The notes: generated from the letters alone by a model not told the origin. A stretch of 64,000 nucleotides of DNA from Candidatus Bathyarchaeota archaeon (GCA_003601775.1 PIYN01000014.1:10479-74478), one strand, 5' to 3'; positions 26,863-49,026 are shown, counted from the first letter of the stretch. Numbers and translations: made by a program.

Positions 26863-27423
26863 TTGATCGAGGAGATAAGGCTTCATGGGAGGGGTGGACA
26901 AGGCGTCGTCGTAAGCGGGGAGCTGATGGCCATAGCGGCCTCCTACGAGGGAAAGTTCTGCAGGGCCTTCCCCTTCTACGGGGCGTCGAGGAGAGGTGCA
27001 CCCGTCGTCGCCTTCGTCCAGATAGGAGACCCGGAGGAGGCGACGAGGGCCCAGGTCTACACGCCGAGGTACCTCTTCATCCTCGACCCGAGGATGGTCG
27101 GGGCCGCCGGCGTGATCAAGGGGCTGAAGGAAGGGGGGGTAGCCGTGGCGAACTCCGGTAAAGAACCTGAGGAGGTCGCGGATTCCCTCGGGGTGAAGCT
27201 CTCTAAGGTGGGTGTCGTCGATGCCACCGCAATAGGGATCGAGATCCTCGGGAGGCCGATCCCCAACACGGCCCTCTTAGGGGCCTTCGCTAAGACGACC
27301 GGCCTCCTCCGCCTGAACTCTCTGGAGAGGGCGATCAGGAAGAGGTTCCAGGGCGAGGCCGCCGAGCTGAACGTGAAGGCCGCCGAGATGGGTTATGAGA
27401 GGGTCAGAATCTGGGAGCCTTAG
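26863..27423 (+). CDS. porG: 2-oxoacid:ferredoxin oxidoreductase gamma subunit (cluster 1)
   Basis: IRLHGRGGQGVV N-terminus typical of POR/VOR gamma subunits; 186 aa. Confidence 0.85.
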   Translation: MIEEIRLHGRGGQGVVVSGELMAIAASYEGKFCRAFPFYGASRRGAPVVAFVQIGDPEEATRAQVYTPRYLFILDPRMVGAAGVIKGLKEGGVAVANSGKEPEEVADSLGVKLSKVGVVDATAIGIEILGRPIPNTALLGAFAKTTGLLRLNSLERAIRKRFQGEAAELNVKAAEMGYERVRIWEP

Positions 27424-27435
27424 GAGGTTGCCGTC

Positions 27436-27714
27436 TTGGTCTTGGCGAAGGGTGAGGTCTCCGAGGTGAAGGGGCTGATGCTCCGGGGAGGGAGGAGCGT
27501 CGGAGGGCGGTACGTCGCCGACTGGCGTACCTTCAGGCCGGTCGTCGATGCCAGTAAGTGTAGGAAGTGCTGGCTCTGCGTGATGTACTGCCCCGAGGGG
27601 GCGATAGGAAGGGGAGAGGAAGGGGCCGTCATTGACCTCCGCTTCTGTAAGGGCTGCGGCATCTGTGCCAATGAATGTCCCGCAGGGGCGATAGAGATGG
27701 TGAGGGAGGAGTGA
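27436..27714 (+). CDS. porD: 2-oxoacid:ferredoxin oxidoreductase delta subunit (2x[4Fe-4S] ferredoxin)
   Basis: Two ferredoxin cysteine motifs CRKCWLCVMYCP and CKGCGICANECP; TTG start preceded by GGAGG. Confidence 0.85.
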   Translation: MVLAKGEVSEVKGLMLRGGRSVGGRYVADWRTFRPVVDASKCRKCWLCVMYCPEGAIGRGEEGAVIDLRFCKGCGICANECPAGAIEMVREE

Positions 27715-27718
27715 GGAT

Positions 27719-29815
27719 ATGACCGAGTTCGACGTGATGCCGGGGAATAAGGCCGTCGCCTACGGCGTGAAGCTCTCAAGGGTCGAGGTAGTCCCGATCT
27801 ACCCCATCACCCCCCAGACCACCATCGTCGAGTACATAGGGGAGTTCATAGCCAACGGGGAGCTGGAGGCGGAGTACATCCAGGCCGAGGGGGAGCACAG
27901 CGCCATGGGTATGGCCATAGGCGCCTCCCTCGCCGGCGCCCGAGCCTTCACGGCCTCCTCCTCCCAGGGGGTCGCCTACATGCACGAGTGCATAGCCCAG
28001 GCCCCAGGCTACCGGACCCCCATCGTCATGGCGGTGGCGAACAGGACCCTCGGCTGGTACTGGGCCCTCGGCCCCGACTACTCGGATATCATGCCGGAGC
28101 TCAACCTCGGCTGGATCGTCCTCATGGCGGAGAGCAACCAGGAGTGCCTCGATACGGTCATACAGCTCTACAGGGTCGCCGAGGACCCCAGGGTCCTCCT
28201 CCCTGCGATGATGTCCCTCGACGGCTTCTACCTCTCCTACTCCTACGAGAAGGTGCTGATACCAGACCAGGAGGTCGTGGACGAGTTCCTACCCCCCTAT
28301 GTGGCGAAGTATCCTGTGGACCCGACCATAAGCGATAAGTGGCCGGCCCCGGGGCTCCCCCCTGCCCTCCACACGACCTACCGGAGGCTCTTCGAGGAGG
28401 TCCTGGGGGACGCGAAGAGGGTCATAAAGGAGGTGGACGAGGAGTTCAGGGAGATCTTCGGGAGGGGGTACGGCGGCCTCCTGGAGGAGTACAAGTGCGA
28501 GGGGGCCGAGGCCGTCCTGGTCACGATGGGGTCCATGACGACGGCGGCGAGGAGGGCTGTGGACAGGCTCAGGAGGGAGGGAAAGAGGATCGGCCTCGTG
28601 AAGCTGAGGGCCCTCAGGCCCTTCCCAAAGGAGGAGTTCAGGAGGATCGCTGAGGAGGTCAACGTCATAGGGGTGGTGGATAGGATGGTCCTCCATGGGA
28701 CGGGAGGCGGCGGGGTCTTCGCAGACCTGAAGTCGGCGCTCTATAGCCTCGAGGAGAGGCCGAAGCTCCTGAACTTCGTCGCTGGTATGGGCGGCGATGA
28801 TATCTCGGTGGAGGACTTCATGGCGATGGGGAGGAAGGTCCATAGGGTCCTGGAGACGGGTCGTGTGGAGAGGGAGGTCGAGTTCGTCGAGCACCCACTT
28901 CCGCCCTCCCGCGGCCCCGTGCCCATGGAGAAGATGCCCATCTACCCCTCGAGCGGCGGGTGCGCCGGCTGCGGTGCGAGCATCGCCCTCAGGAACATCC
29001 TGGACGTCCTGGGCCTCAACACAGTCGTCATAAACCCTCCGAGCTGTGCCACGGTCAACTACTCCGCGCAGGTCTCCGTCCCCTGGGTCCTGGCCAACTA
29101 TGCGGCGGGTCCCGCCTATGAGACGGGTGTCTTCCGCGCCTACAGGATCAAGGGGAAGACCGGCAGGATCGCCGTGATCGGCTTCTCGGGGGACGGGGGG
29201 ACGGTGGATATCGGCCTCCAAGCCCTCTCCGGGGCGGCTGAGCGGGGGGAGTCCATGATCTGGATCTGTTACGACAACGAGGCCTACATGAACACGGGGG
29301 TTCAGAGGAGCGGCTCCACGCCCCTCTTCTCGAGGACCACCTCCACGCCCGTGGGGAAGCTATGGAGGGGGAAGGGGCAGCGGCGTAAGAACATGGTCCT
29401 CATCATGGCCGCCCATAGGATACCCTACATCGCGACTGCCTCCATCGCCTACCTCCCGGACCTGAGAAGGAAGGTAAAGAGGGCGGCGGAGATCACCGCT
29501 GCCGGGAGGGGCCTCGCCTACATCCACATCCAACAGCCCTGTCCGACGGGCTGGTACTTCCCCGTGGATAAGACCGTGGAGGTCGCGAGGCTCGCCGTGG
29601 AGACAGGCGCCTGGCCCCTCCTGGAGATCGAGGAGGGAAGGCTGAGGATCAACTTTAAGCCGAGGAAACTAAAGCCCATCGGGGAGTACCTCAGGCTCCA
29701 GGGGAGGTTCAGGCACCTGACGGAGGAGGAGATCGCGGAGATACAGAGAGTCGTGGAGGAGGACTGGAGGTCCTGGCTCGAGCTGGAGAAGATGGGGAAG
29801 CTACCCTGGTACTGA
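27719..29815 (+). CDS. porA: 2-oxoacid:ferredoxin oxidoreductase fused alpha-beta subunit
   Basis: 698 aa. The N-terminal 400 aa align to the alpha subunit (YPITPQTTIVEY...). A Pro-rich linker HPLPPSRGPVP joins a complete beta subunit (MEKMPIYPSSGGCAGCG ... TPP-binding GDGG..NEAYMNTG). Separate alpha and beta genes exist in the paralogous cluster at 46833..49026. Confidence 0.85.
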   Translation: MTEFDVMPGNKAVAYGVKLSRVEVVPIYPITPQTTIVEYIGEFIANGELEAEYIQAEGEHSAMGMAIGASLAGARAFTASSSQGVAYMHECIAQAPGYRTPIVMAVANRTLGWYWALGPDYSDIMPELNLGWIVLMAESNQECLDTVIQLYRVAEDPRVLLPAMMSLDGFYLSYSYEKVLIPDQEVVDEFLPPYVAKYPVDPTISDKWPAPGLPPALHTTYRRLFEEVLGDAKRVIKEVDEEFREIFGRGYGGLLEEYKCEGAEAVLVTMGSMTTAARRAVDRLRREGKRIGLVKLRALRPFPKEEFRRIAEEVNVIGVVDRMVLHGTGGGGVFADLKSALYSLEERPKLLNFVAGMGGDDISVEDFMAMGRKVHRVLETGRVEREVEFVEHPLPPSRGPVPMEKMPIYPSSGGCAGCGASIALRNILDVLGLNTVVINPPSCATVNYSAQVSVPWVLANYAAGPAYETGVFRAYRIKGKTGRIAVIGFSGDGGTVDIGLQALSGAAERGESMIWICYDNEAYMNTGVQRSGSTPLFSRTTSTPVGKLWRGKGQRRKNMVLIMAAHRIPYIATASIAYLPDLRRKVKRAAEITAAGRGLAYIHIQQPCPTGWYFPVDKTVEVARLAVETGAWPLLEIEEGRLRINFKPRKLKPIGEYLRLQGRFRHLTEEEIAEIQRVVEEDWRSWLELEKMGKLPWY

Positions 29816-29834
29816 AGGCCCCCCTCTTTTTTAT
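29816..29834 (+). terminator. archaeal oligo-T terminator (C-run then TTTTTT) after porAB
   Basis: CCCCCCTCTTTTTTAT read directly downstream of the stop codon; a near-identical element follows the second POR cluster. Confidence 0.5.
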
Positions 29835-29860
29835 CAGAAGGCTCTAATATCTCCTCCAAG

Positions 29861-29879
29861 TATCCACCTTCGGTGGATA
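29861..29879 (+). promoter_or_regulatory. perfect 8-bp hairpin TATCCACC-TTC-GGTGGATA ending 1 nt before the start codon of the ThrRS-editing-domain gene
   Basis: Inverted repeat read directly; position suggests transcript-end stabiliser or translational control of the downstream gene. Confidence 0.35.
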
Positions 29880-29880
29880 T

Positions 29881-30294
29881 ATGAGGGTCCTACAGCTCCA
29901 CTGCTCGGAGTTCAGCTACTCCGTCAGGAGGGAGACGCCGGTCGCGGAGAGGCCGGCGGAGCCGAGGGAGGAGCGCCTCGAGAACGTCCTCGTCTGCCTC
30001 ATCTGCTTCGAGAAGGGGGATGAGCACCGCATCGAGGCGCTCATCGAGAGCTTCGTCGAGAGCCTCAGGGTCGATACCTCGCGCCTGGGGTGTAGGAGGC
30101 TCCTCCTCTACCCCTACGCCCACCTATCTAAGAACCTGGGCTCGGCCAGGTCGGCGAAGGAGTTCATGAAGAGGCTCAGGGACCGCCTTGTAGAGGAGGG
30201 CTTCGAGGCCCATAAGTCGCCCTTCGGCTGGTATAAGGCCTTCTCCCTCACCTGCCTCGGCCACCCCCTGGCAGAGGCCTACAGGGAGTTTTAG
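29881..30294 (+). CDS. free-standing archaeal ThrRS-type editing domain protein (tRNA-Thr_ED fold; DTD2-like D-aminoacyl-tRNA deacylase candidate)
   Basis: 137 aa. MRVLQLHCSEFSY..., ...LLLYPYAHLS... and ...SPFGWYKAFSLTCLGHPL match the hallmark blocks of the N-terminal editing domain of archaeal threonyl-tRNA synthetase. Confidence 0.6.
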   Translation: MRVLQLHCSEFSYSVRRETPVAERPAEPREERLENVLVCLICFEKGDEHRIEALIESFVESLRVDTSRLGCRRLLLYPYAHLSKNLGSARSAKEFMKRLRDRLVEEGFEAHKSPFGWYKAFSLTCLGHPLAEAYREF

Positions 30295-30299
30295 GGGAT

Positions 30300-31463
30300 T
30301 CAGAGGCGGGTGAGCTGCTTCTCCGCCTCCCCCACCGCCGTCCCCGCCTCGACAGGGTATCCGAGTTCCATCAGGGACATCTCCAGCGCCGCCAGCGTCG
30401 CGACCACGTCGTTCGCCGTCACCGTCCCCATGTGTCCGATCCTGAAGGTCCTCCCGGCCAGCCTCCCGAGGCCGCCGGCGACGATGACCCTGTACTTCTC
30501 CCTCATCAGCCTCCTCACCTCCTGCTCCGCCACCCCCTCAGGGGCCTCTGGGACGGTCAGGGAGTTGGCCCTGTACCCCTCCCTCGGGAAGAGGGTCAGC
30601 CCCAGGGATTGGACCCCCCTCCTGACGGCCTCGGCTATGACCTCGTGCCTCCTCCACCGCTCCTCCAATCCCTCCTCCATTACGATGCGGAGGGCCTCCC
30701 TCAGGGCCAGGAGCAGCGGGACGGAGGGGGTTGCGAAGTACCTCTGCGGGTTCTCCATCACGGGGAGCCACCTCCTCAGATCGGCGTAGTAGTCGGTCAC
30801 CGGCGTCTCCCTCCCCTCAACGACCCTCCAGGCATCATCGCTGAAGGTGAGGAGGGTGAGCCCCGGGGGAGCCCCTATCGCCTTCTGGCTCCCCGTGAGG
30901 CAGACGTCTATGCCCCACTCGTCCACCTTCACCGGCATCGCGCCTATGCCGCAGACGGTGTCGACGATGTATAGGGCATCGAAGTCCCTCGCCGCCTCGC
31001 CGACCTTATCGATGGGGTTCGCGATCCCCGTCGAGGTATCGACGTGCTCAACCGTCAAGGCCTTGTAGGGCTTCTCCTCCAACCTCTCCCTCACCAACCC
31101 CACGTCGACGGGCTCCCCCCACTCAAAGGTGAGGCGGTCCACCTCCCCTCCATGGGCCCTGACGAGGTCCTTGAACTTCTCGCCGAAGAACCCATTCTCC
31201 ACGCAGAGAACCCTGTCCCCCGGCTCGACGACATTAGCTATCGCCGCCTCCATCCCGAGGGTCCCCGACCCAGAGAGGATGAAGACCCTCCCCTCCGAGA
31301 GGAAGAGCCTCCTCGTGAGCTCAAGAGCCTCCCTGAAGGCCTCGACGAACTCGCCGCTCACGTGGCTCACAACGGGCTTCGCCATGACCCTCAAGACCCT
31401 CGGGGAGACCATGGTGGGACCGGGGATCATTAAGAGTTCACGTTCATCACCCATACTCAGCAC
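30300..31463 (-). CDS. class V aminotransferase (serine-pyruvate/alanine-glyoxylate aminotransferase family)
   Basis: 387 aa; N-terminal LMIPGPT, PLP-Lys in CLTGSQKAIGAPPG. Confidence 0.8.
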   Translation of the reverse strand: MLSMGDERELLMIPGPTMVSPRVLRVMAKPVVSHVSGEFVEAFREALELTRRLFLSEGRVFILSGSGTLGMEAAIANVVEPGDRVLCVENGFFGEKFKDLVRAHGGEVDRLTFEWGEPVDVGLVRERLEEKPYKALTVEHVDTSTGIANPIDKVGEAARDFDALYIVDTVCGIGAMPVKVDEWGIDVCLTGSQKAIGAPPGLTLLTFSDDAWRVVEGRETPVTDYYADLRRWLPVMENPQRYFATPSVPLLLALREALRIVMEEGLEERWRRHEVIAEAVRRGVQSLGLTLFPREGYRANSLTVPEAPEGVAEQEVRRLMREKYRVIVAGGLGRLAGRTFRIGHMGTVTANDVVATLAALEMSLMELGYPVEAGTAVGEAEKQLTRL

Positions 31464-31565: not shown

Positions 31566-32831
31566 ATGGGGTTTCTCGCCTTGAAGAGGGTTGTCGTCCC
31601 TAACCTCGAGTGGTATGGCGATCAGCCGCTTGAGCTGCTCTTCCCGGAGCGATGGGAGGTCACGAGGTGTAGGATGGAGGGGGAGGGGAAGCGGGGGCTC
31701 CGGGACGAGGAGATCAGGGCGGCGCTGGAGAACCCCGTGGGGACGAAGCCCCTCTCCCGGCTGGCGGAGGGGCATGAGGAGGTCGTCATCCTCTTCGACG
31801 ACATGACCCGACCCACCAAGACATACAGGGTCCTCCCCTTTATCCTCGAGACCCTGGAGAAGGCGGGGATACCAGATGAGAACGTCCGCCTCATCATGGC
31901 GACGGGGTCTCACGGCCCCCATGGCCGCCTCGACTTCGTGAAGAAGCTGGGGGAGGAGGTCGTCGAGCGCTATCCCGTCTATAATCATAACCCCTACGAC
32001 AACCTCGAGGACCTCGGGGAGACAAGTAGGGGGACGCCTGTGAAGGTCAATGCGGAGGTGATGGGGTGCGACCTGAAGATCGGGATCGGCTCGATCCTCT
32101 TCCACAGGCTCATGGGCTTCAGCGGCGGAGGGAAGATCATCATGCCCGGCGTAGCGGGGATCGAGACCATCCAGCACAACCATGGGGATGTCGGCGGCTT
32201 CGGGGCTGGGAGGAGACCCCATCCCTCCACGGGGTACCTGAGAAACGAGGGGAACGTGATGCGCCTGGACGCGGAGGAGGCCGCGAGGATGGCGGGCCTC
32301 GACTTCAAGGTCGATATGGTTATAAACCTGAGGCGGGAGCCCATAGCCCTCTTCGCAGGGGACTTCGTCGAGGAGCAGAGGCTCGGGGCGCAGAGGGCCT
32401 ACAGGGAGCACGCGACGGAGACGCCGAGGGAGATGGACATAGTCGTCGTGAACGCCTACGCCCGGGCGAACGAGCCCCACATCGCGATGTGGGCCGCCTA
32501 CACCTCCGTGAAGGAGGACGGAACGATCGTCCTCATCCCCAACGCCCCAGACGGCGAGATCAACCACTGGATCTTCGGGCGCCACGGGAAATGGCATGGG
32601 GGGCGGCTCTGGGGACCCAGGCCCAGAAGACCGCTTCAGAGGGGGAGGAGGCTGATCATATACTCGCCCTACAGGGAGCGGACCCTCGAGATGAAGTTCG
32701 GCCTCCCGGAACAGGTCACTTGGGTGAAGACCTGGGTGGAGGTCCTGGAGGAGTTAAGGAACAACTATCCGGGGCGCGCCAGGGTCGCGGTCTACCCCGA
32801 TGCGACGCTCGGCTATCCGCGGACCGCCTGA
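31566..32831 (+). CDS. LarA-family (nickel-pincer-dependent lactate racemase-like) protein
   Basis: 421 aa; DUF2088/LarA N-terminal domain pattern with conserved His clusters (ATGSHGPHG, IQHNHGD). Confidence 0.7.
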   Translation: MGFLALKRVVVPNLEWYGDQPLELLFPERWEVTRCRMEGEGKRGLRDEEIRAALENPVGTKPLSRLAEGHEEVVILFDDMTRPTKTYRVLPFILETLEKAGIPDENVRLIMATGSHGPHGRLDFVKKLGEEVVERYPVYNHNPYDNLEDLGETSRGTPVKVNAEVMGCDLKIGIGSILFHRLMGFSGGGKIIMPGVAGIETIQHNHGDVGGFGAGRRPHPSTGYLRNEGNVMRLDAEEAARMAGLDFKVDMVINLRREPIALFAGDFVEEQRLGAQRAYREHATETPREMDIVVVNAYARANEPHIAMWAAYTSVKEDGTIVLIPNAPDGEINHWIFGRHGKWHGGRLWGPRPRRPLQRGRRLIIYSPYRERTLEMKFGLPEQVTWVKTWVEVLEELRNNYPGRARVAVYPDATLGYPRTA

Positions 32832-32907: not shown

Positions 32908-33844
32908 GATGCCTGTCTCAGAGGAGGCCCGGGCCCATTCAGGGGAGCACGTCCTCTTCCAATCCCTATCGAGGGTCTTCAGGGGGATGGAGTCCGTAAA
33001 GGTCGTCCTGGGCCCTGGGAAGAAGCAGCTCTTCGTGAGATACAGCGGTGAGATCGACTGGGATGGGGTGTTGGAGGCGGAGAAGCTGGCGAACAGGGTT
33101 ATACGGGAGGACAGGAGGATAAGGGTCGTCGTCGGCGACAGGGAGGAGGTGAGGAGAAGATACGGGAGGAGGCTGAGGGGGAGGTGGGACCTGATCAAGG
33201 ATAAGCAGATCAGGATCGTCGAGGTCGAGAACTTTGACTACGTGGCCTGTAAGGGGGAGCACGTCCAGAGGACCGGGGAGATCGGCTTCATCGTCGTAAA
33301 GGGCTTCAGGAAGACCAGGAGGGGGGAGTACGAGATCCAGTTCGAGGTCGGGGAGAGGGCCTGGGAATACGCCCTGGAGTCGAAGAGGCTCGCCATGAGA
33401 CTCGTCGAGATCCTCGGGACGACCCCGGAGATCGCTGAGGAGACGGCGAGGAACCTCAGGGAGGAGGCCCAGAGGCTGAGGAGGGGGATGAGGGAGGCGA
33501 GTAAGAGGGCCTTGGAGAACCTGAAATATGAGGAGGTGAGAGGAGTACGGGTCTACTCCGGGGTCTTCGAGGGCCTCGATAGGAGGGAGCTGGTGAAGAG
33601 GGCGGCGGACCTGAGGAAGGAGGGGAATACCGTTGTGGTCCTCGGGGACCTCTCAGGCTTCCTCGTCATGGGGAGGAGCGACGACCTCGGCTTCAACGTG
33701 ATCCCCCTACTGGAGAAGGGCTGCCGCTTTCTCGGCGGGAGGTGTGGGGGGAGGGAGAAACTCGCCTTTGGAGGAGGGTTTAAGTCCAAGGACCTGAGGG
33801 AGGCCGTCGACCTAATAAAGAGAGAACTGACTAAGATCCTATGA
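32908..33844 (+). CDS. alaX: AlaX-like alanyl-tRNA editing protein (editing domain plus Gly-rich DHHA1-like C-terminal domain)
   Basis: Zinc-binding HxxxH (HSGEHV) and CxxxH (CKGEHV) motifs of the AlaRS/ThrRS second-additional domain; C-terminal GGRCGGREKLAFGGG glycine motif. The start is uncertain: the frame is open far upstream, and the first ATG after the LarA stop was used. Confidence 0.6.
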
Positions 33845-35061
33845 AGGGGGAAAGGAGGTATTGGATGTTCAAGACATCGATAAGCGGTCTCAGCCCTGAT
33901 GAGATCTGGGAGCGCGTCCAGGGCTTCTCCTCCTGGATCGAGGTGGACCTGGACAGTATCGGGCATAACCTCTCCCAGATCAGGGAGCTCGTGGGCGACC
34001 GAGGGATCATCCCTGTGGTCAAGGCGAACGCCTACGGACACGGCCTCATACCCATCGTCAGGTTCCTCATGGAGGAGGGGGTGGAGACCTTCCTCGTGGC
34101 GAAGCTGGAGGAGGCCCTCGCGATCCGGGGGGCGGGGCTCAAGTGTGGCGTCTTGAACATGGACCCCCTCTTCTCCGACCGACAGTTCAGGACCGTTGTC
34201 TCAGAGGAGATCGCCCAGACGGTCTTCACGTTAGAGGCGGCTGAGAGGCTCTCGAGGGCCGCTGAGGAGGTAGGAAAGCCGGCGAGGGTCCACGTTAAGG
34301 TCGATACGGGGCTCGGGAGGGTCGGGGTGAGGTACGACAGGGCAGCGGAGTTCGTCAAGCGGATTAGCGGGCTACCCGGGCTGGTCGTCGAGGGGCTCTT
34401 CTCCACCTTCACGGAGGCGAAGCCCTTCGACGAAGTCCAGCTCCGGAGGTTCCTGGAGGTAGACGCCTCCCTGAGGCGGTCCGGCGTCGAGGTCCCCCTC
34501 AGGCATATGGCGAGCAGCGACGCCCTCCTCTCCCTCCCGGAGGCCTACCTGGATGCCGTGAGGCCGGGGATCATCCTCTACGGTTACTACCCCTCTGAGA
34601 GGGCTGAGGAGGAGAGGAGGGTGGAGCTGAGGCCCGCGTTGAGGCTTAAGGCCCGGGTCGAGCTCGTGAAGTGGTTGGAGGCGGGGGACTCTGTCTCCTA
34701 CCTCAGGGCTTACATGGCGGAGAGGAGGATGAGGGTGGCGACGATCCACGTTGGGTACTCCGACGGCTACCCTCACACCCTCTCCAACAAGGGCTCGATC
34801 CTACTGGGAGACCGAGAGGCAGAGATCATCGGCCGGGTCTCCGCCAACCACTTCGTCGTGAGCCTCGACGGCCTCGGCGACGTGGAGGAAGGAGATGAGG
34901 CCCTCCTTCTGGGCGGCGATGGGGAGACATCCCTGAGTAGAGTCGCCTGGAAGGCAGGAACGTCCACCTACAAGGTCCTGATCGGCCTCAGCCCGCTCCT
35001 GCCGAGGGTCTACCTCAAGGGGGGAGCCCCTGTGGACCTCTGGCCCCCTCCCCTGTGGTAG
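33841..35061 (+). CDS. alr: alanine racemase (PLP-dependent)
   Basis: PLP-lysine motif VVKANAYGHG and the two-domain racemase organisation; 406 aa. Start is possibly MFKTSI at 33865. Confidence 0.85.
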   Translation: MKGERRYWMFKTSISGLSPDEIWERVQGFSSWIEVDLDSIGHNLSQIRELVGDRGIIPVVKANAYGHGLIPIVRFLMEEGVETFLVAKLEEALAIRGAGLKCGVLNMDPLFSDRQFRTVVSEEIAQTVFTLEAAERLSRAAEEVGKPARVHVKVDTGLGRVGVRYDRAAEFVKRISGLPGLVVEGLFSTFTEAKPFDEVQLRRFLEVDASLRRSGVEVPLRHMASSDALLSLPEAYLDAVRPGIILYGYYPSERAEEERRVELRPALRLKARVELVKWLEAGDSVSYLRAYMAERRMRVATIHVGYSDGYPHTLSNKGSILLGDREAEIIGRVSANHFVVSLDGLGDVEEGDEALLLGGDGETSLSRVAWKAGTSTYKVLIGLSPLLPRVYLKGGAPVDLWPPPLW

Positions 35062-45968: not shown

Positions 45969-46550
45969 TTGGATGTCGAGGGGTGTGCTTTGGAGGAGAG
46001 ACTCATAGAGGTGAGGTTCCACGGGCGGGGAGGGCAGGGGGCGTGGACCGCCTCCCAACTCCTCGCCCTTGGAGGGCTGAAGGAGGGGAAGCACGTCCAG
46101 AGCTTCCCCACCTTTGGGCCGGAGAGGGCGGGGGCGCCGATCCAGGCCTTCACCCGCATAAGCGACAGGCCTATAAACCTCCACTCGAGGGTCTATGAGC
46201 CGGACATCGTGGTGGTCCTAGATCCAACCCTACTGGGACCCGGGGTCGCCGAGGGGGTGAGCCGGGGGACCCTCCTTGTGGTCAACACCGGCGAGGGCCC
46301 CCAAGAGGTGAGGAAGGTGCTCGGCCTGAAGGAGAACGAGGTCTGGGTGGTCGACGCCACGGAGCTCGCCATGAGGATCCTGGGACGCCCCATCACGAAC
46401 ACGGCGGTCCTCGGGGCCCTCCTGAGGGCGAGGGAGGTCATAAGCCTCGAGTCACTGCTGGAGGCCGTGAGGGAGAGGTTCCCCGGGAGGGTTGGAGAGC
46501 TGAACGTGAAGCTCGTCCAAGAGGCCTATAGGGAGGCGAGGAATAGATGA
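45969..46550 (+). CDS. porG: 2-oxoacid:ferredoxin oxidoreductase gamma subunit (cluster 2)
   Basis: VRFHGRGGQGAW N-terminus; paralogue of 26863..27423. Confidence 0.85.
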   Translation: MDVEGCALEERLIEVRFHGRGGQGAWTASQLLALGGLKEGKHVQSFPTFGPERAGAPIQAFTRISDRPINLHSRVYEPDIVVVLDPTLLGPGVAEGVSRGTLLVVNTGEGPQEVRKVLGLKENEVWVVDATELAMRILGRPITNTAVLGALLRAREVISLESLLEAVRERFPGRVGELNVKLVQEAYREARNR

Positions 46551-46831
46551 CGGGACAGAAGAGCGCACCCGGATGGAGGGAGCTGCCGCATGGGGCCGTT
46601 CCCTATAAGTCGAGCAGGGAGTATAAAACGGGGGACTGGGGGGTCCTCAAGCCCAAGATCGACTTTGGGAGGTGCACGAAATGCACCCTCTGCCATTTCT
46701 ACTGCCCCGAGGGAGCTATAAGGATGAGGGGGGACGGGTACCCTGAGGTCGACTATGACTTCTGTAAGGGCTGCGGCATCTGCGCCGCCGAGTGCCCCGT
46801 CAAGTGCATCGAGATGGTGAGGAGGGGCTGA
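46547..46831 (+). CDS. porD: 2-oxoacid:ferredoxin oxidoreductase delta subunit (cluster 2)
   Basis: CTKCTLCHFYCP and CKGCGICAAECP ferredoxin motifs. Confidence 0.85.
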   Translation: MTGQKSAPGWRELPHGAVPYKSSREYKTGDWGVLKPKIDFGRCTKCTLCHFYCPEGAIRMRGDGYPEVDYDFCKGCGICAAECPVKCIEMVRRG

Positions 46832-46832
46832 G

Positions 46833-48053
46833 ATGACAGTGGTAGAGCAGAAATTATTGGGACTCAACGGGGACGAGGCCGTCGCCTACGCGATAAAGCA
46901 GGTCAACCCAGACGTCGTCGCGGCCTACCCCATCACGCCCCAGACGATCATCGTCGAGAGGTTCTCCGAGTACGTCGCCGATGGGGAGGTGGAGACGGAG
47001 TTCATCGCCGTCGAGTCGGAGCACAGCGCCCTCAGCACCTGCATAGGGGCCGAGGCCGCCGGAGGAAGGGCCTTCACCTGCACCGCCGCCAACGGCCTCG
47101 CCCTGATGTGGGAGATGACCTACATAGCCGCCTCCCTGAGGCTACCCATCGTCATGGCCGTGGTCAACAGGGCGCTGAGCGCCCCCATCAACATCCACAA
47201 CGACCACAGCGACTCCATGGGGGCGAGGGACAGTGGGTGGATACAGCTCTACTGCGAGAACAGCCAAGAGGCCTACGATACCGCCATCCAGGCCTGGAGG
47301 ATCGGGGAGCACCCGGAGGTCCAGCTCCCCGTGATGATCTGCCTCGACGGCTTCATCCTGAGCCACACGCTGGAGAACGTCCTGACCCTGCCAGACGAGG
47401 TCGTCAGGGAGTTCATCGGGGAGAGATCCTTCCCGAGGGTCCAGGGGCACCTGGGTGAGGCGGAGTTCAGGCTCGACCCGGAGCACCCCATCACCATGGG
47501 CCCCCTTGACCTCTACGACTTCTACTTCGAGCACAAGAGGCCACAGGTGGAGGCGATGAAGAGGGCGCTCCCAGTGATAGAGGAGGTAGGAAGGGAGTAT
47601 GGGCGGATCTCGGGGAGGACCTACAGCCTCCTCCACCCCTACAGGCTCGAGGACGCGGAGATCGCCGTCGTCGGCCTCGGCTCAACGATGGGGACGGCGA
47701 GGGTTGTGGTAGACCGGCTGAGGAGCCGAGGCGTCAAGGCCGGTCTCCTGAGGGTCAGGGCCTTCAGGCCCTTCCCCGCGCACGAGATCCTGAAGGCTCT
47801 CTCCCACGTCGAGGCTGTGGGGGTGCTGGACAGATGCGCCAGCTTCGGCGCCCTTGGGGGCCCCCTCTTCATGGAGGTGAGGAACGCCTTCTACGACTCT
47901 GCGGAGCGTCCCATCATCTCCGACTACATCTACGGACTCGGGGGGAGGGATATGTCCATGGAGATGCTCGAGGAGGTCTTCAAGAGCCTGGAGGAGGACA
48001 GGAGGGCGGGGAGGCCTCTGGAGCTCGTCAGATACATCGGGTTGAGGGAGTGA
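46833..48053 (+). CDS. porA: 2-oxoacid:ferredoxin oxidoreductase alpha subunit (cluster 2)
   Basis: 406 aa; AYPITPQTIIVERF N-terminal block. Confidence 0.85.
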   Translation: MTVVEQKLLGLNGDEAVAYAIKQVNPDVVAAYPITPQTIIVERFSEYVADGEVETEFIAVESEHSALSTCIGAEAAGGRAFTCTAANGLALMWEMTYIAASLRLPIVMAVVNRALSAPINIHNDHSDSMGARDSGWIQLYCENSQEAYDTAIQAWRIGEHPEVQLPVMICLDGFILSHTLENVLTLPDEVVREFIGERSFPRVQGHLGEAEFRLDPEHPITMGPLDLYDFYFEHKRPQVEAMKRALPVIEEVGREYGRISGRTYSLLHPYRLEDAEIAVVGLGSTMGTARVVVDRLRSRGVKAGLLRVRAFRPFPAHEILKALSHVEAVGVLDRCASFGALGGPLFMEVRNAFYDSAERPIISDYIYGLGGRDMSMEMLEEVFKSLEEDRRAGRPLELVRYIGLRE

Positions 48054-48054
48054 G

Positions 48055-49026
48055 GTGGGTGAGATGAGTCTGAGAGAGATGGCCAAGCAGCCCGACCTCC
48101 TGGCCCCTGGGCACAGGCTCTGCGCCGGGTGCGGGGAGGCCGTCACTGCGAGGCTCGTCCTCAAGGCCGTGAGGGGTCCGACGATCGTGACGGCGGCGAC
48201 AGGGTGCCTCGAGGTGGCGACGACCATCTTCCCCTACACCGCCTGGGACCTGCCCTGGATACACACCGCCTTCGAGAACGCCGCGGCGAACGCCAGCGGG
48301 ATAGAGGCCGCCTTCAGGGCCATGAAGAGGAAGGGGCGTGGGCCCCTGGCGAAGTACGAGCACATAGACGTCATCGCCTTCGCGGGTGACGGGGGGACCT
48401 ACGACATCGGCCTCCAGGCCCTCAGCGGGGCCCTTGAGCGGGGACACGACTTCGTCTACGTCCTCCTCGACAACGAGGCCTACATGAACACGGGGATCCA
48501 GAGGAGCGGGGGGACGCCTCGATGCGCGGCGACGACGACGAGCCCCGCGGGGAGGGTCATCCCAGGGAAGAGGGAGTGGAAGAAGCCCATAGATGAGATC
48601 GTCGTGGCCCATGAGATACCCTACGTCGCCACCGTGAGCGCCTCCTACCCCACTGACCTTATCCGGAAGATGCGATGCGCCCTGGAGGCCGAGGGACCCG
48701 CCTTCATCCATGCCTTCGTCCCCTGCCCCAGAGGGTGGCGATTCCCCTCTGAACAGACGATAGCCCTGGGACGCCTCGCCGTCCAAACCTGCCTCTTCCC
48801 CCTCTGGGAGTGCAGGCTGGAGGAGGGGAGGCCGAGGTACACGCTCTCGAGCCCCAGCCTCTCCATCGCAAAGAACCCGGAGAGGAAGAGGCCAATAGAG
48901 GAGTACCTCGAGAAACAGGGACGCTTCAGGCACCTCTTCAGGCCCGAGAGGAGGGACGACCTCATCAAGGAGATACAGGAGTGGGTCGACCTTAAGTGGG
49001 AGAGACTCCTGGAGAAGGCCCTCTAA
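48055..49026 (+). CDS. porB: 2-oxoacid:ferredoxin oxidoreductase beta subunit (TPP-binding, cluster 2)
   Basis: CAGCGEAV Fe-S cysteines and TPP motif GDGGTYDIG...NEAYMNTG. Confidence 0.85.
   Translation: MGEMSLREMAKQPDLLAPGHRLCAGCGEAVTARLVLKAVRGPTIVTAATGCLEVATTIFPYTAWDLPWIHTAFENAAANASGIEAAFRAMKRKGRGPLAKYEHIDVIAFAGDGGTYDIGLQALSGALERGHDFVYVLLDNEAYMNTGIQRSGGTPRCAATTTSPAGRVIPGKREWKKPIDEIVVAHEIPYVATVSASYPTDLIRKMRCALEAEGPAFIHAFVPCPRGWRFPSEQTIALGRLAVQTCLFPLWECRLEEGRPRYTLSSPSLSIAKNPERKRPIEEYLEKQGRFRHLFRPERRDDLIKEIQEWVDLKWERLLEKAL

Follow-up and report, generated by a model that had tools for sequence, protein, structure and literature searches.

In full-length archaeal threonyl-tRNA synthetase (ThrRS; PRK03991) the core and the anticodon-binding domain lie in one polypeptide, and the N-terminal editing domain is joined by a linker to the class II core. 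The crenarchaeal ThrRS-ed (Sulfolobus, Aeropyrum ThrRS-2) is a trans-acting editing subunit for a ThrRS without an editing domain; it measures 380-570 aa, contains a degenerate core and an HGTP anticodon-binding domain (PF03129), and is reportedly the Ser-tRNA(Thr) hydrolase described by Korencic and colleagues in 2004. Its partner, ThrRS-cat, belongs to the bacterial-like type.

Stand-alone "tRNA-Thr-ED" proteins without an anticodon-binding domain were defined by Mukai et al. (2017, mBio; PMC5424206) and are widespread in prokaryotes. Two groups of these proteins adjoin clade VII SepCysS, and they were proposed to hydrolyse aminoacyl-tRNA, possibly Ser-tRNA(Cys); in MSBL1/Hadesarchaea, tRNA-Thr-ED genes occur alongside full-length ThrRS (PMC5424206, Text S1). 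The SepCysS-associated subgroup is often found with tRNA-Cys and sulfur genes. The isolated P. abyssi editing domain, as the work of Novoa (2015) is related in PMC11295145 and PMC8762117, takes Ser-tRNA-Thr and refuses other Ser-tRNAs. Discriminator U73 has been proposed as the recognition element for this isolated domain, and Mukai et al. (2022, Front Genet; PMC8762117) argued that the editing domain alone reads U73. The Mukai sequence set contains no Bathyarchaeota members, and a search of the literature on ThrRS editing in Bathyarchaeia and Asgard archaea found nothing beyond Mukai et al.

The protein described here is encoded in a 64-kb stretch of DNA from a Candidatus Bathyarchaeota archaeon, the whole of which was analysed and is referred to as the window. 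It is an editing-domain-only (ED-only) protein and an uncharacterised addition to the already described stand-alone tRNA-Thr-ED proteins, with which it shares a single PF08915 domain (about 130-145 aa), a gene of its own and the lack of an anticodon-binding domain. The gene is in one sense an ordinary one, because its family, its fold and its probable chemistry are known. Mukai's widespread group has lost the Y-K pair and the Glu (…FGYF…SLAKVFK), whereas the type found in the window, here called Bathy-type, keeps the full ThrRS pocket. Mukai's SepCysS-linked groups have other C-termini or a Cys-rich tail, and the gene of the window is not beside SepCysS. The protein also has an editing domain homologous to that of crenarchaeal ThrRS-ed and a similar predicted role as a trans-acting editing subunit; it lacks both the degenerate core and the HGTP domain, however, and its presumed partner is an archaeal-type ThrRS without an editing domain (ED-less), unlike the crenarchaeal system.

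A single-domain ThrRS-type editing protein

The ORF is intact, with 137 codons and its TAG stop inside the interval (Table 1), and its codon-position GC of 0.57/0.42/0.91 is like that of the genuine genes of the window (61% GC). PF08915 (tRNA-Thr_ED) is the only Pfam family matched at E<=1, with an E-value of 4.1e-41 and 140.7 bits (cut-off 30.2); this greatly exceeds what chance would give, and the alignment places residues 1-136 of the protein on positions 1-136 of the 137 in the profile. A first-pass annotation had placed a ThrRS-type editing domain here from three hallmark blocks, which is borne out by the end-to-end profile match and by the presence of all three blocks at residues 2-13 (RVLQLHCSEFSY), 76-83 (LYPYAHLS) and 114-130 (PFGWYKAFSLTCLGHPL). 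Its description of the domain as free-standing, with neither catalytic nor anticodon-binding domains, also holds, as the protein stops at 137 aa and a convergent gene lies beyond. In a search of PDB sequences, the protein matches the ThrRS editing domains of M. jannaschii (4rrf, E 4.6e-25) and P. abyssi (1y2q/2hl1, E 3e-22) as well as A. pernix ThrRS-2 (4rr6, E 1.5e-19). The NCBIfam models PRK03991 (136.9 bits, cut-off 484) and PRK14938, a Ser-tRNA(Thr) hydrolase (98.4 bits, cut-off 362), are matched over model positions 1-137 of 613 and 1-131 only, respectively. Two GenBank proteins from Candidatus Bathyarchaeota archaeon are 100% identical to the ED-only protein, RLI33914.1 (DRO56_00530) and RJS89381.1 (CW700_04440), and the NCBI family name already in use is "threonyl-tRNA synthetase editing domain-containing protein".

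Exactly 137 aa are found in 109 of the 120 closest database homologues, and all the named ones belong to Bathyarchaeota/Bathyarchaeia. This constant length and the conserved C-terminus AYRE[FY]-stop are kept across hundreds of clusters in at least six genomic contexts. Pairwise dN/dS of the gene is 0.07-0.22, and the gene is under purifying selection. The ORF is a genuine, selected gene for a single-domain ThrRS-type editing protein.

An AlphaFold2 model of the ED-only protein was built on 62 family members and has a pLDDT of 88.2 and a pTM of 0.83. The first 23 PDB structures in a Foldseek search with this model are all archaeal ThrRS editing domains (E 1e-15 to 5e-13, TM 0.80-0.89, 31-35% identity), and the solved structures matched include 4rrr, 3pd3, 4rrf, 1y2q and 4rr6. 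The protein is predicted from this model to have the DTD-like alpha/beta fold of the solved P. abyssi, M. jannaschii and A. pernix domains. With the P. abyssi Pab-NTD (1Y2Q/2HL1/3PD3) and M. jannaschii 4RRF it shares the Pfam family, the length and the fold (TM 0.86-0.89) at 33-35% identity. The residues of the seryl-adenosine pocket of P. abyssi (P80, A82, H83, A94, F117, Y120, K121, H130, E134) all have equivalents in the ED-only protein, and these are 100% conserved in 121 family members and also in alignment A2. All Ser-binding and catalytic residues are identical to those of the archaeal ThrRS domain, the invariant H81, Y118, K119, H128 and E132 corresponding to Pab H83, Y120, K121, H130 and E134. 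Where the cis domain runs on into its linker, the ED-only protein ends five residues past the last strand (…AEAYREF-stop), and C8, C42, D65, R68, G87, S88 and S113 are invariant specifically in the Bathy-type ED-only family.

Ranks 24-50 of the fold search are all DTD structures of the DTD1 type from P. falciparum (TM 0.64-0.76, E 1e-7 to 1e-5), to which the ED-only protein is 15-19% identical. The domain had initially been labelled "DTD2-like", with DTD2 said to share the fold of the ThrRS editing domain. This label is wrong, because no DTD2 is present among the 50 best PDB fold matches, the DTD motifs are absent and the pocket is ThrRS-like; the DTD2 profile (PF04414) likewise gives no match at E<=1. 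The DTD2 fold is not known to be related to that of the ThrRS editing domain. DTD2, an archaeal/plant enzyme, resembles the ED-only protein in general activity class only, as an archaeal aminoacyl-tRNA deacylase, which is the activity predicted for the ED-only protein. The ED-only domain has a DTD(1)-like fold with a ThrRS-like pocket, in keeping with the literature, where the ThrRS editing domain is called DTD-like and DTD2 is listed as a separate isoform (PMC11295145).

Upstream of the gene, a T6 tract directly follows the stop codon of the pyruvate:ferredoxin oxidoreductase (POR) operon, as read from the sequence, and the intergenic region also contains the A/T-rich, TATA-like stretches TTTTTATC and CTAATATC. 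GGTGGA is located 5-10 nt ahead of the ED-only ATG. The region is likely to contain a putative POR terminator followed by the ED-only gene's own promoter and ribosome-binding site. Downstream, a catalytic or anticodon-binding domain cannot follow the ORF because the convergent class-V aminotransferase gene fills the adjacent DNA. This aminotransferase is AGXT/BhcA-like, and its SepCysS match has only 20% identity (E 3e-5). No tRNA genes, SepRS or SepCysS were found within the 64-kb window.

Table 1. Coordinates of features in the window and at the other loci discussed
Feature	Sequence	Coordinates	Strand	Remarks
POR operon	Window	26863-29815		Upstream of ED-only gene
Intergenic region	Window	29816..29880	+	65 nt, fused POR alpha/beta stop to ED-only start
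ED-only gene (tRNA-Thr-ED, single domain)	Window	29881..30294	+	ATG to TAG, 137 aa
Class-V aminotransferase gene	Window	30300..31463	-	Convergent; 3' end about 5-6 nt past ED-only stop
LarA-family homologue	Window	31566-32831	+
AlaX-like gene	Window	32987-33844	+
Alanine racemase gene	Window	33841-35061	+
2-oxoacid:ferredoxin oxidoreductase set	Window	45969-49026
ED-less ThrRS gene	L130	4511-5968	-	485 aa
ED-only gene	L130	8001-8414		137 aa
Stretch missing from L121, L123	L130	4809/4863-6124		About 1.3 kb
Three PF08915 paralogues with SAM methyltransferase and SepCysS genes	L153	4724-8922		Paralogues within 2.5 kb
YbaK/ProX-type gene	L104	15281-15745
YbaK/ProX-type gene	L160	4115-4573
Cys-rich small ORF	L093	2745-2951
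Cys-rich small ORF	L096	1027-1233
Cys-rich small ORF	L101	2716-2925
Cys-rich small ORF	L029	about 2540-2750

Several other genes of the window were annotated. The POR operon is one of two 2-oxoacid:ferredoxin oxidoreductase sets, and its alpha and beta subunits are fused into one 698-aa protein. A homologue of the LarA-family nickel-pincer 2-hydroxyacid racemases, which scores under all NCBIfam cut-offs and is closest to the malate racemase LarAH6 (230 bits), lies between the aminotransferase gene and an AlaX-like trans-editing gene. The AlaX-like product combines tRNA_SAD HxxxH/CxxxH with DHHA1, scores under the AlaXM cut-off and has the C-terminal part of archaeal AlaRS as its best match. 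It is abutted by an alanine racemase gene (TIGR00492, 305 bits, cut-off 168), with an overlap of 4 nt if the racemase begins at its first ATG (33841), and the pair resembles an AlaX-alr operon that lies 2.7 kb downstream of ED-only. That the lactate/alanine racemase genes nearby might point to hydroxyacyl- or D-aminoacyl-tRNA editing was considered and rejected.

Relatives of the ED-only protein and their gene neighbourhoods

HMMER was run exhaustively against 1.8 billion representatives and found 639 matches, among which the Bathy-type ED-only family collapses to two representatives. Below these the scores drop from 210 to 136 bits, where other single-domain proteins of about 135 aa follow, and lower-ranked still are ThrRS-ed of 390-570 aa and ThrRS of about 615-640 aa. 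Single-domain versions were found in Culexarchaeia and Nitrososphaeria MAGs too, and the ED-only architecture is thus shared by several separate lineages. The Bathy-type clade has a bootstrap of 70% in a tree of the 136-column domain, its deeper placement being unsupported, and the family is separate from Mukai's SepCysS-associated proteins in both domain trees, the deep nodes of which are unsupported. A sister relationship of ED-only to the Bathyarchaeia cis domain, present in a first NJ tree, was not recovered with bootstrapping, in which only shallow clades are supported, and was not adopted.

With the ED-only alignment as query, a metagenome scan detected 545 relatives; the 80 best loci were retained. 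The window's close relatives have the gene order POR / ED / aminotransferase, the largest sublineage has Alba / ED / GlcD-like oxidase-EtfAB / PurB / YbaK-like / GrpE-DnaK, and other arrangements again are found in CP070640.1, a complete genome with an ED-only gene, and in hot-spring MAGs. The gene neighbourhood of ED-only is not kept between sublineages. Alba, the GlcD-like oxidase/EtfAB, PurB, the YbaK-like protein and GrpE-DnaK were considered as a functional operon, which was rejected because the arrangement looks like lineage synteny. The YbaK-like gene of this neighbourhood is a YbaK/ProX-type tRNA_edit gene (PF04073) about 5 kb from the ED-only gene, and it was observed at the two loci in Table 1 and at 12 further loci.

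At two of the metagenomic loci, L153 and L157, the Bathy-type ED-only gene (136 aa, ending in ...AEAYREF) lies between two other single-domain ED paralogues. The first paralogue resembles the SepCysS-associated kind (…PFGWEKVF…AESSRTIRF) and the second is of the widespread kind (…FGYFLEF…SLAKVWK). The cluster also holds a SAM methyltransferase and SepCysS (TIGR02539, 415.7 bits, cut-off 365), so that the adjacent SepCysS of Mukai's subgroup is found at these two loci and not in the window. Three different single-domain PF08915 paralogues are likewise present within 2.5 kb at L165, again with SAM methyltransferase and SepCysS genes, as they are at L157 and at L153 (JGI Ga0315309_1002817). The occurrence of triple paralogues with SepCysS suggests that stand-alone editing domains may have diversified in specificity.

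ThrRS architecture in Bathyarchaeia and Asgard archaea

Species-representative genomes were scanned with an archaeal ThrRS core profile, which gave 23 Bathyarchaeia loci; the scan covers ThrRS with the archaeal-type core. At 21 of the 23 loci the ThrRS is full-length and has an N-terminal editing domain of its own. The two remaining ThrRS are ED-less (L029, 471 aa, GC 63%; L043, stop-to-stop frame of 487 codons), and no editing domain was found upstream in any frame, in the 3 kb examined for L029 and, for L043, in the 448 nt before the contig ends. A similar ED-less ThrRS is encoded by an unclassified archaeon (L052). The L029 protein beats the PRK03991 equivalog cut-off, yet covers model positions 155-612 only. 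It belongs to a tight clade with clusters of 83-92% identity and 469-474 aa, all without PF08915, whose members include OYT51189.1 (Bathyarchaeota ex4484_135), RLI09308.1 and RLI10954.1, the last two from the same RLI/DRO accession series as the window's RLI33914.1. ED-less ThrRS is present in GC-rich hydrothermal relatives (ex4484_135, Guaymas MAGs) and in two other lineages. The ED-less ThrRS clade lies on contigs of 57-67% GC and the window has 61%, as against 40-52% for Bathyarchaeia contigs with full-length ThrRS.

In the core tree, the ED-less ThrRS of Bathyarchaeia form one group with their ED-less counterparts from Odin-, Hod-, Hermod- and Promethearchaeota (bootstrap 90), and the Bathyarchaeia subset within this clade has a bootstrap of 100. 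The archaeal-type ThrRS observed in these Asgard archaea, including one on a 1.42-Mb Odin contig, are about 470-480 aa, all without an editing domain (L022, L023, L025, L030, L032, L033, L040; P0466, P0471, P0474, P0501). A Methanomethylicia ThrRS core query was uninformative, its best 120 matches being full-length ThrRS of about 60% identity from many phyla, and P0354 was rejected as an ED-less ThrRS because the sequence is cut by the contig end. No genes common to the ED-less ThrRS contigs and the window were found by tblastx, and no assembly with both ED-only and ED-less ThrRS was found by assembly accessions and GenBank accession blocks.

Two further observations were made at ThrRS loci. 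Directly upstream of the ED-less ThrRS gene in several Bathyarchaeia is a small ORF encoding a basic, Cys-rich protein of 68-69 aa (CSVVGC…YLC.EHYKE), for which there is no Pfam match. Archaeal-type ThrRS are also carried by MAG contigs labelled Saccharibacteria or 'bacterium' (L038, L039, L042, L044, L049), four of the five with the archaeal editing domain, and this is either horizontal transfer or mis-binning.

ED-only and ED-less ThrRS are physically linked on a 32.8-kb JGI contig (Ga0315288_10001246; L130), on which the two genes are 2 kb apart, and can therefore share a genome. The ThrRS scores 666.8 bits against PRK03991 (cut-off 484) over model positions 142-612. Two genes lie between them, one diphthamide-synthase-like and the other encoding a 136-aa protein with no assigned family. 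Two contigs that are 89-97% identical to L130 (L121, L123) lack about 1.3 kb relative to it, with most of the ThrRS gone, and keep the ED-only gene despite this loss. As the ThrRS is mostly gone, those strains must hold another ThrRS; the gap reflects either the loss of a redundant ThrRS copy in these strains or an assembly error.

Predicted function of the ED-only protein

The ED-only protein is predicted, with a probability of roughly 60%, to be a trans-acting L-seryl-tRNA(Thr) deacylase that most likely replaces the editing domain absent from the lineage's ThrRS. The protein itself is likely to be enzymatically active. Whether this genome pairs it with only an ED-less ThrRS is evenly balanced: the bases for the pairing are the one contig with both genes and the distribution at lineage level, and the ThrRS deletion in L121 and L123 is partly contrary. 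By analogy with the solved domains, the protein is probably a homodimer. It would act in trans as a post-transfer proofreading enzyme, binding the CCA-aminoacyl end of tRNA-Thr mischarged with L-serine by ThrRS and hydrolysing the ester bond of Ser-tRNA-Thr, while Thr-tRNA-Thr would be spared. Since ED-only has no anticodon-binding domain, the choice of tRNA must rest on the acceptor end. This GC-rich hydrothermal Bathyarchaeia lineage would have a two-gene ThrRS, with ED-only as the minimal editing subunit.

Other readings of the ORF differ in how well they fit these data. Zestosphaera has 128-aa and 407-aa pieces on one contig, and many truncated matches of 150-350 aa occur on short contigs, as would suit an ORF that is a decaying remnant, or the wrongly called 5' part, of a longer ThrRS or ThrRS-ed gene with a frameshift, the case in which the first-pass annotation would have fallen. 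That reading is refuted for the window by the end of the convergent gene about 5 nt past the ED-only stop, by the absence of ThrRS-like sequence in any frame of the 64 kb, by the retention of 137 aa and the C-terminus in so many clusters and contexts, and by dN/dS well under 1. The same annotation had offered two functions, of which the Ser-tRNA(Thr) deacylase is the best reading and the other, a D-aminoacyl-tRNA deacylase with DTD- or DTD2-like chiral proofreading, is very improbable. The latter draws on the DTD-related fold, and DTD, which likewise has no anticodon-binding domain, hydrolyses aminoacyl-tRNA at its acceptor end, as is predicted for ED-only. However, neither PF02580 (DTD) nor PF04414 is matched at E<=1 in Pfam, the motifs SQFTL and GPVT (NxGPVT, Gly-cisPro) are absent with no Gly-Pro anywhere in the protein, and the identity to DTD is 15-19%, compared with 33-35% to ThrRS editing domains. 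With these motifs missing and the residues behind the L-Ser specificity of the ThrRS domain invariant, chiral proofreading is not the expected activity.

Closer to the preferred reading is a role as an accessory trans-editing factor beside a self-editing ThrRS, in which ED-only would act on released Ser-tRNA-Thr as a 'third sieve' or on a different tRNA with U73. For the latter, the leading candidate is Ser-tRNA-Cys formed from dephosphorylated Sep-tRNA-Cys in SepRS/SepCysS organisms, following the hypothesis of Mukai et al. Most sampled Bathyarchaeia do carry a full-length ThrRS, and the MSBL1/Hadesarchaea, with their full-length ThrRS, and the tRNA-Thr-ED genes linked to clade VII SepCysS (PMC5424206) offer a precedent. 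L121 and L123, which lost the adjacent ED-less ThrRS and kept ED-only, are consistent with such a role, as is the placement of Bathy-type ED-only among ED paralogues, a SAM methyltransferase and SepCysS at L153 and L157; owing to the latter cluster, action on Ser-tRNA(Cys) stays in play as a competing or additional role. An accessory factor is nonetheless rather unlikely here. SepCysS linkage occurs at 2-3 of 83 loci, the window has neither SepCysS nor SepRS and its aminotransferase is AGXT/BhcA-like, the Bathy-type clade stands apart from Mukai's SepCysS-associated proteins in both trees (with the unsupported deep nodes), and ED-less ThrRS occurs in exactly the GC-rich lineage that resembles the window.

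More tentatively, a subset of Bathyarchaeia may possess a third, minimal ThrRS split, in which an ED-less ThrRS of the clade shared with Asgard archaea is combined with a 137-aa subunit that perhaps polices both tRNA-Thr and tRNA-Cys. The subunit would find its substrate by the acceptor end alone, tRNA-Thr and tRNA-Cys both having U73, and policing of both tRNAs would explain the presence of ED-only beside SepCysS in some genomes.

If the pairing with an ED-less ThrRS is true, Ser/Thr proofreading in these archaea would depend on a diffusible 15-kDa domain, and no natural ThrRS editing factor would be smaller than ED-only. It would then represent a third solution beside the cis arrangement of most archaea and the ThrRS-cat/ThrRS-ed arrangement of Crenarchaeota, and would offer a clean system for tRNA recognition by the DTD fold without an anticodon-binding module. 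If ED-only instead coexists with an editing-proficient ThrRS, it would be a candidate for the proposed clearance of Ser-tRNA(Cys) in SepRS/SepCysS organisms. The ED-less ThrRS clade, common to Asgard archaea and a part of the Bathyarchaeia, is relevant to the assembly of the synthetase and to its exchange.
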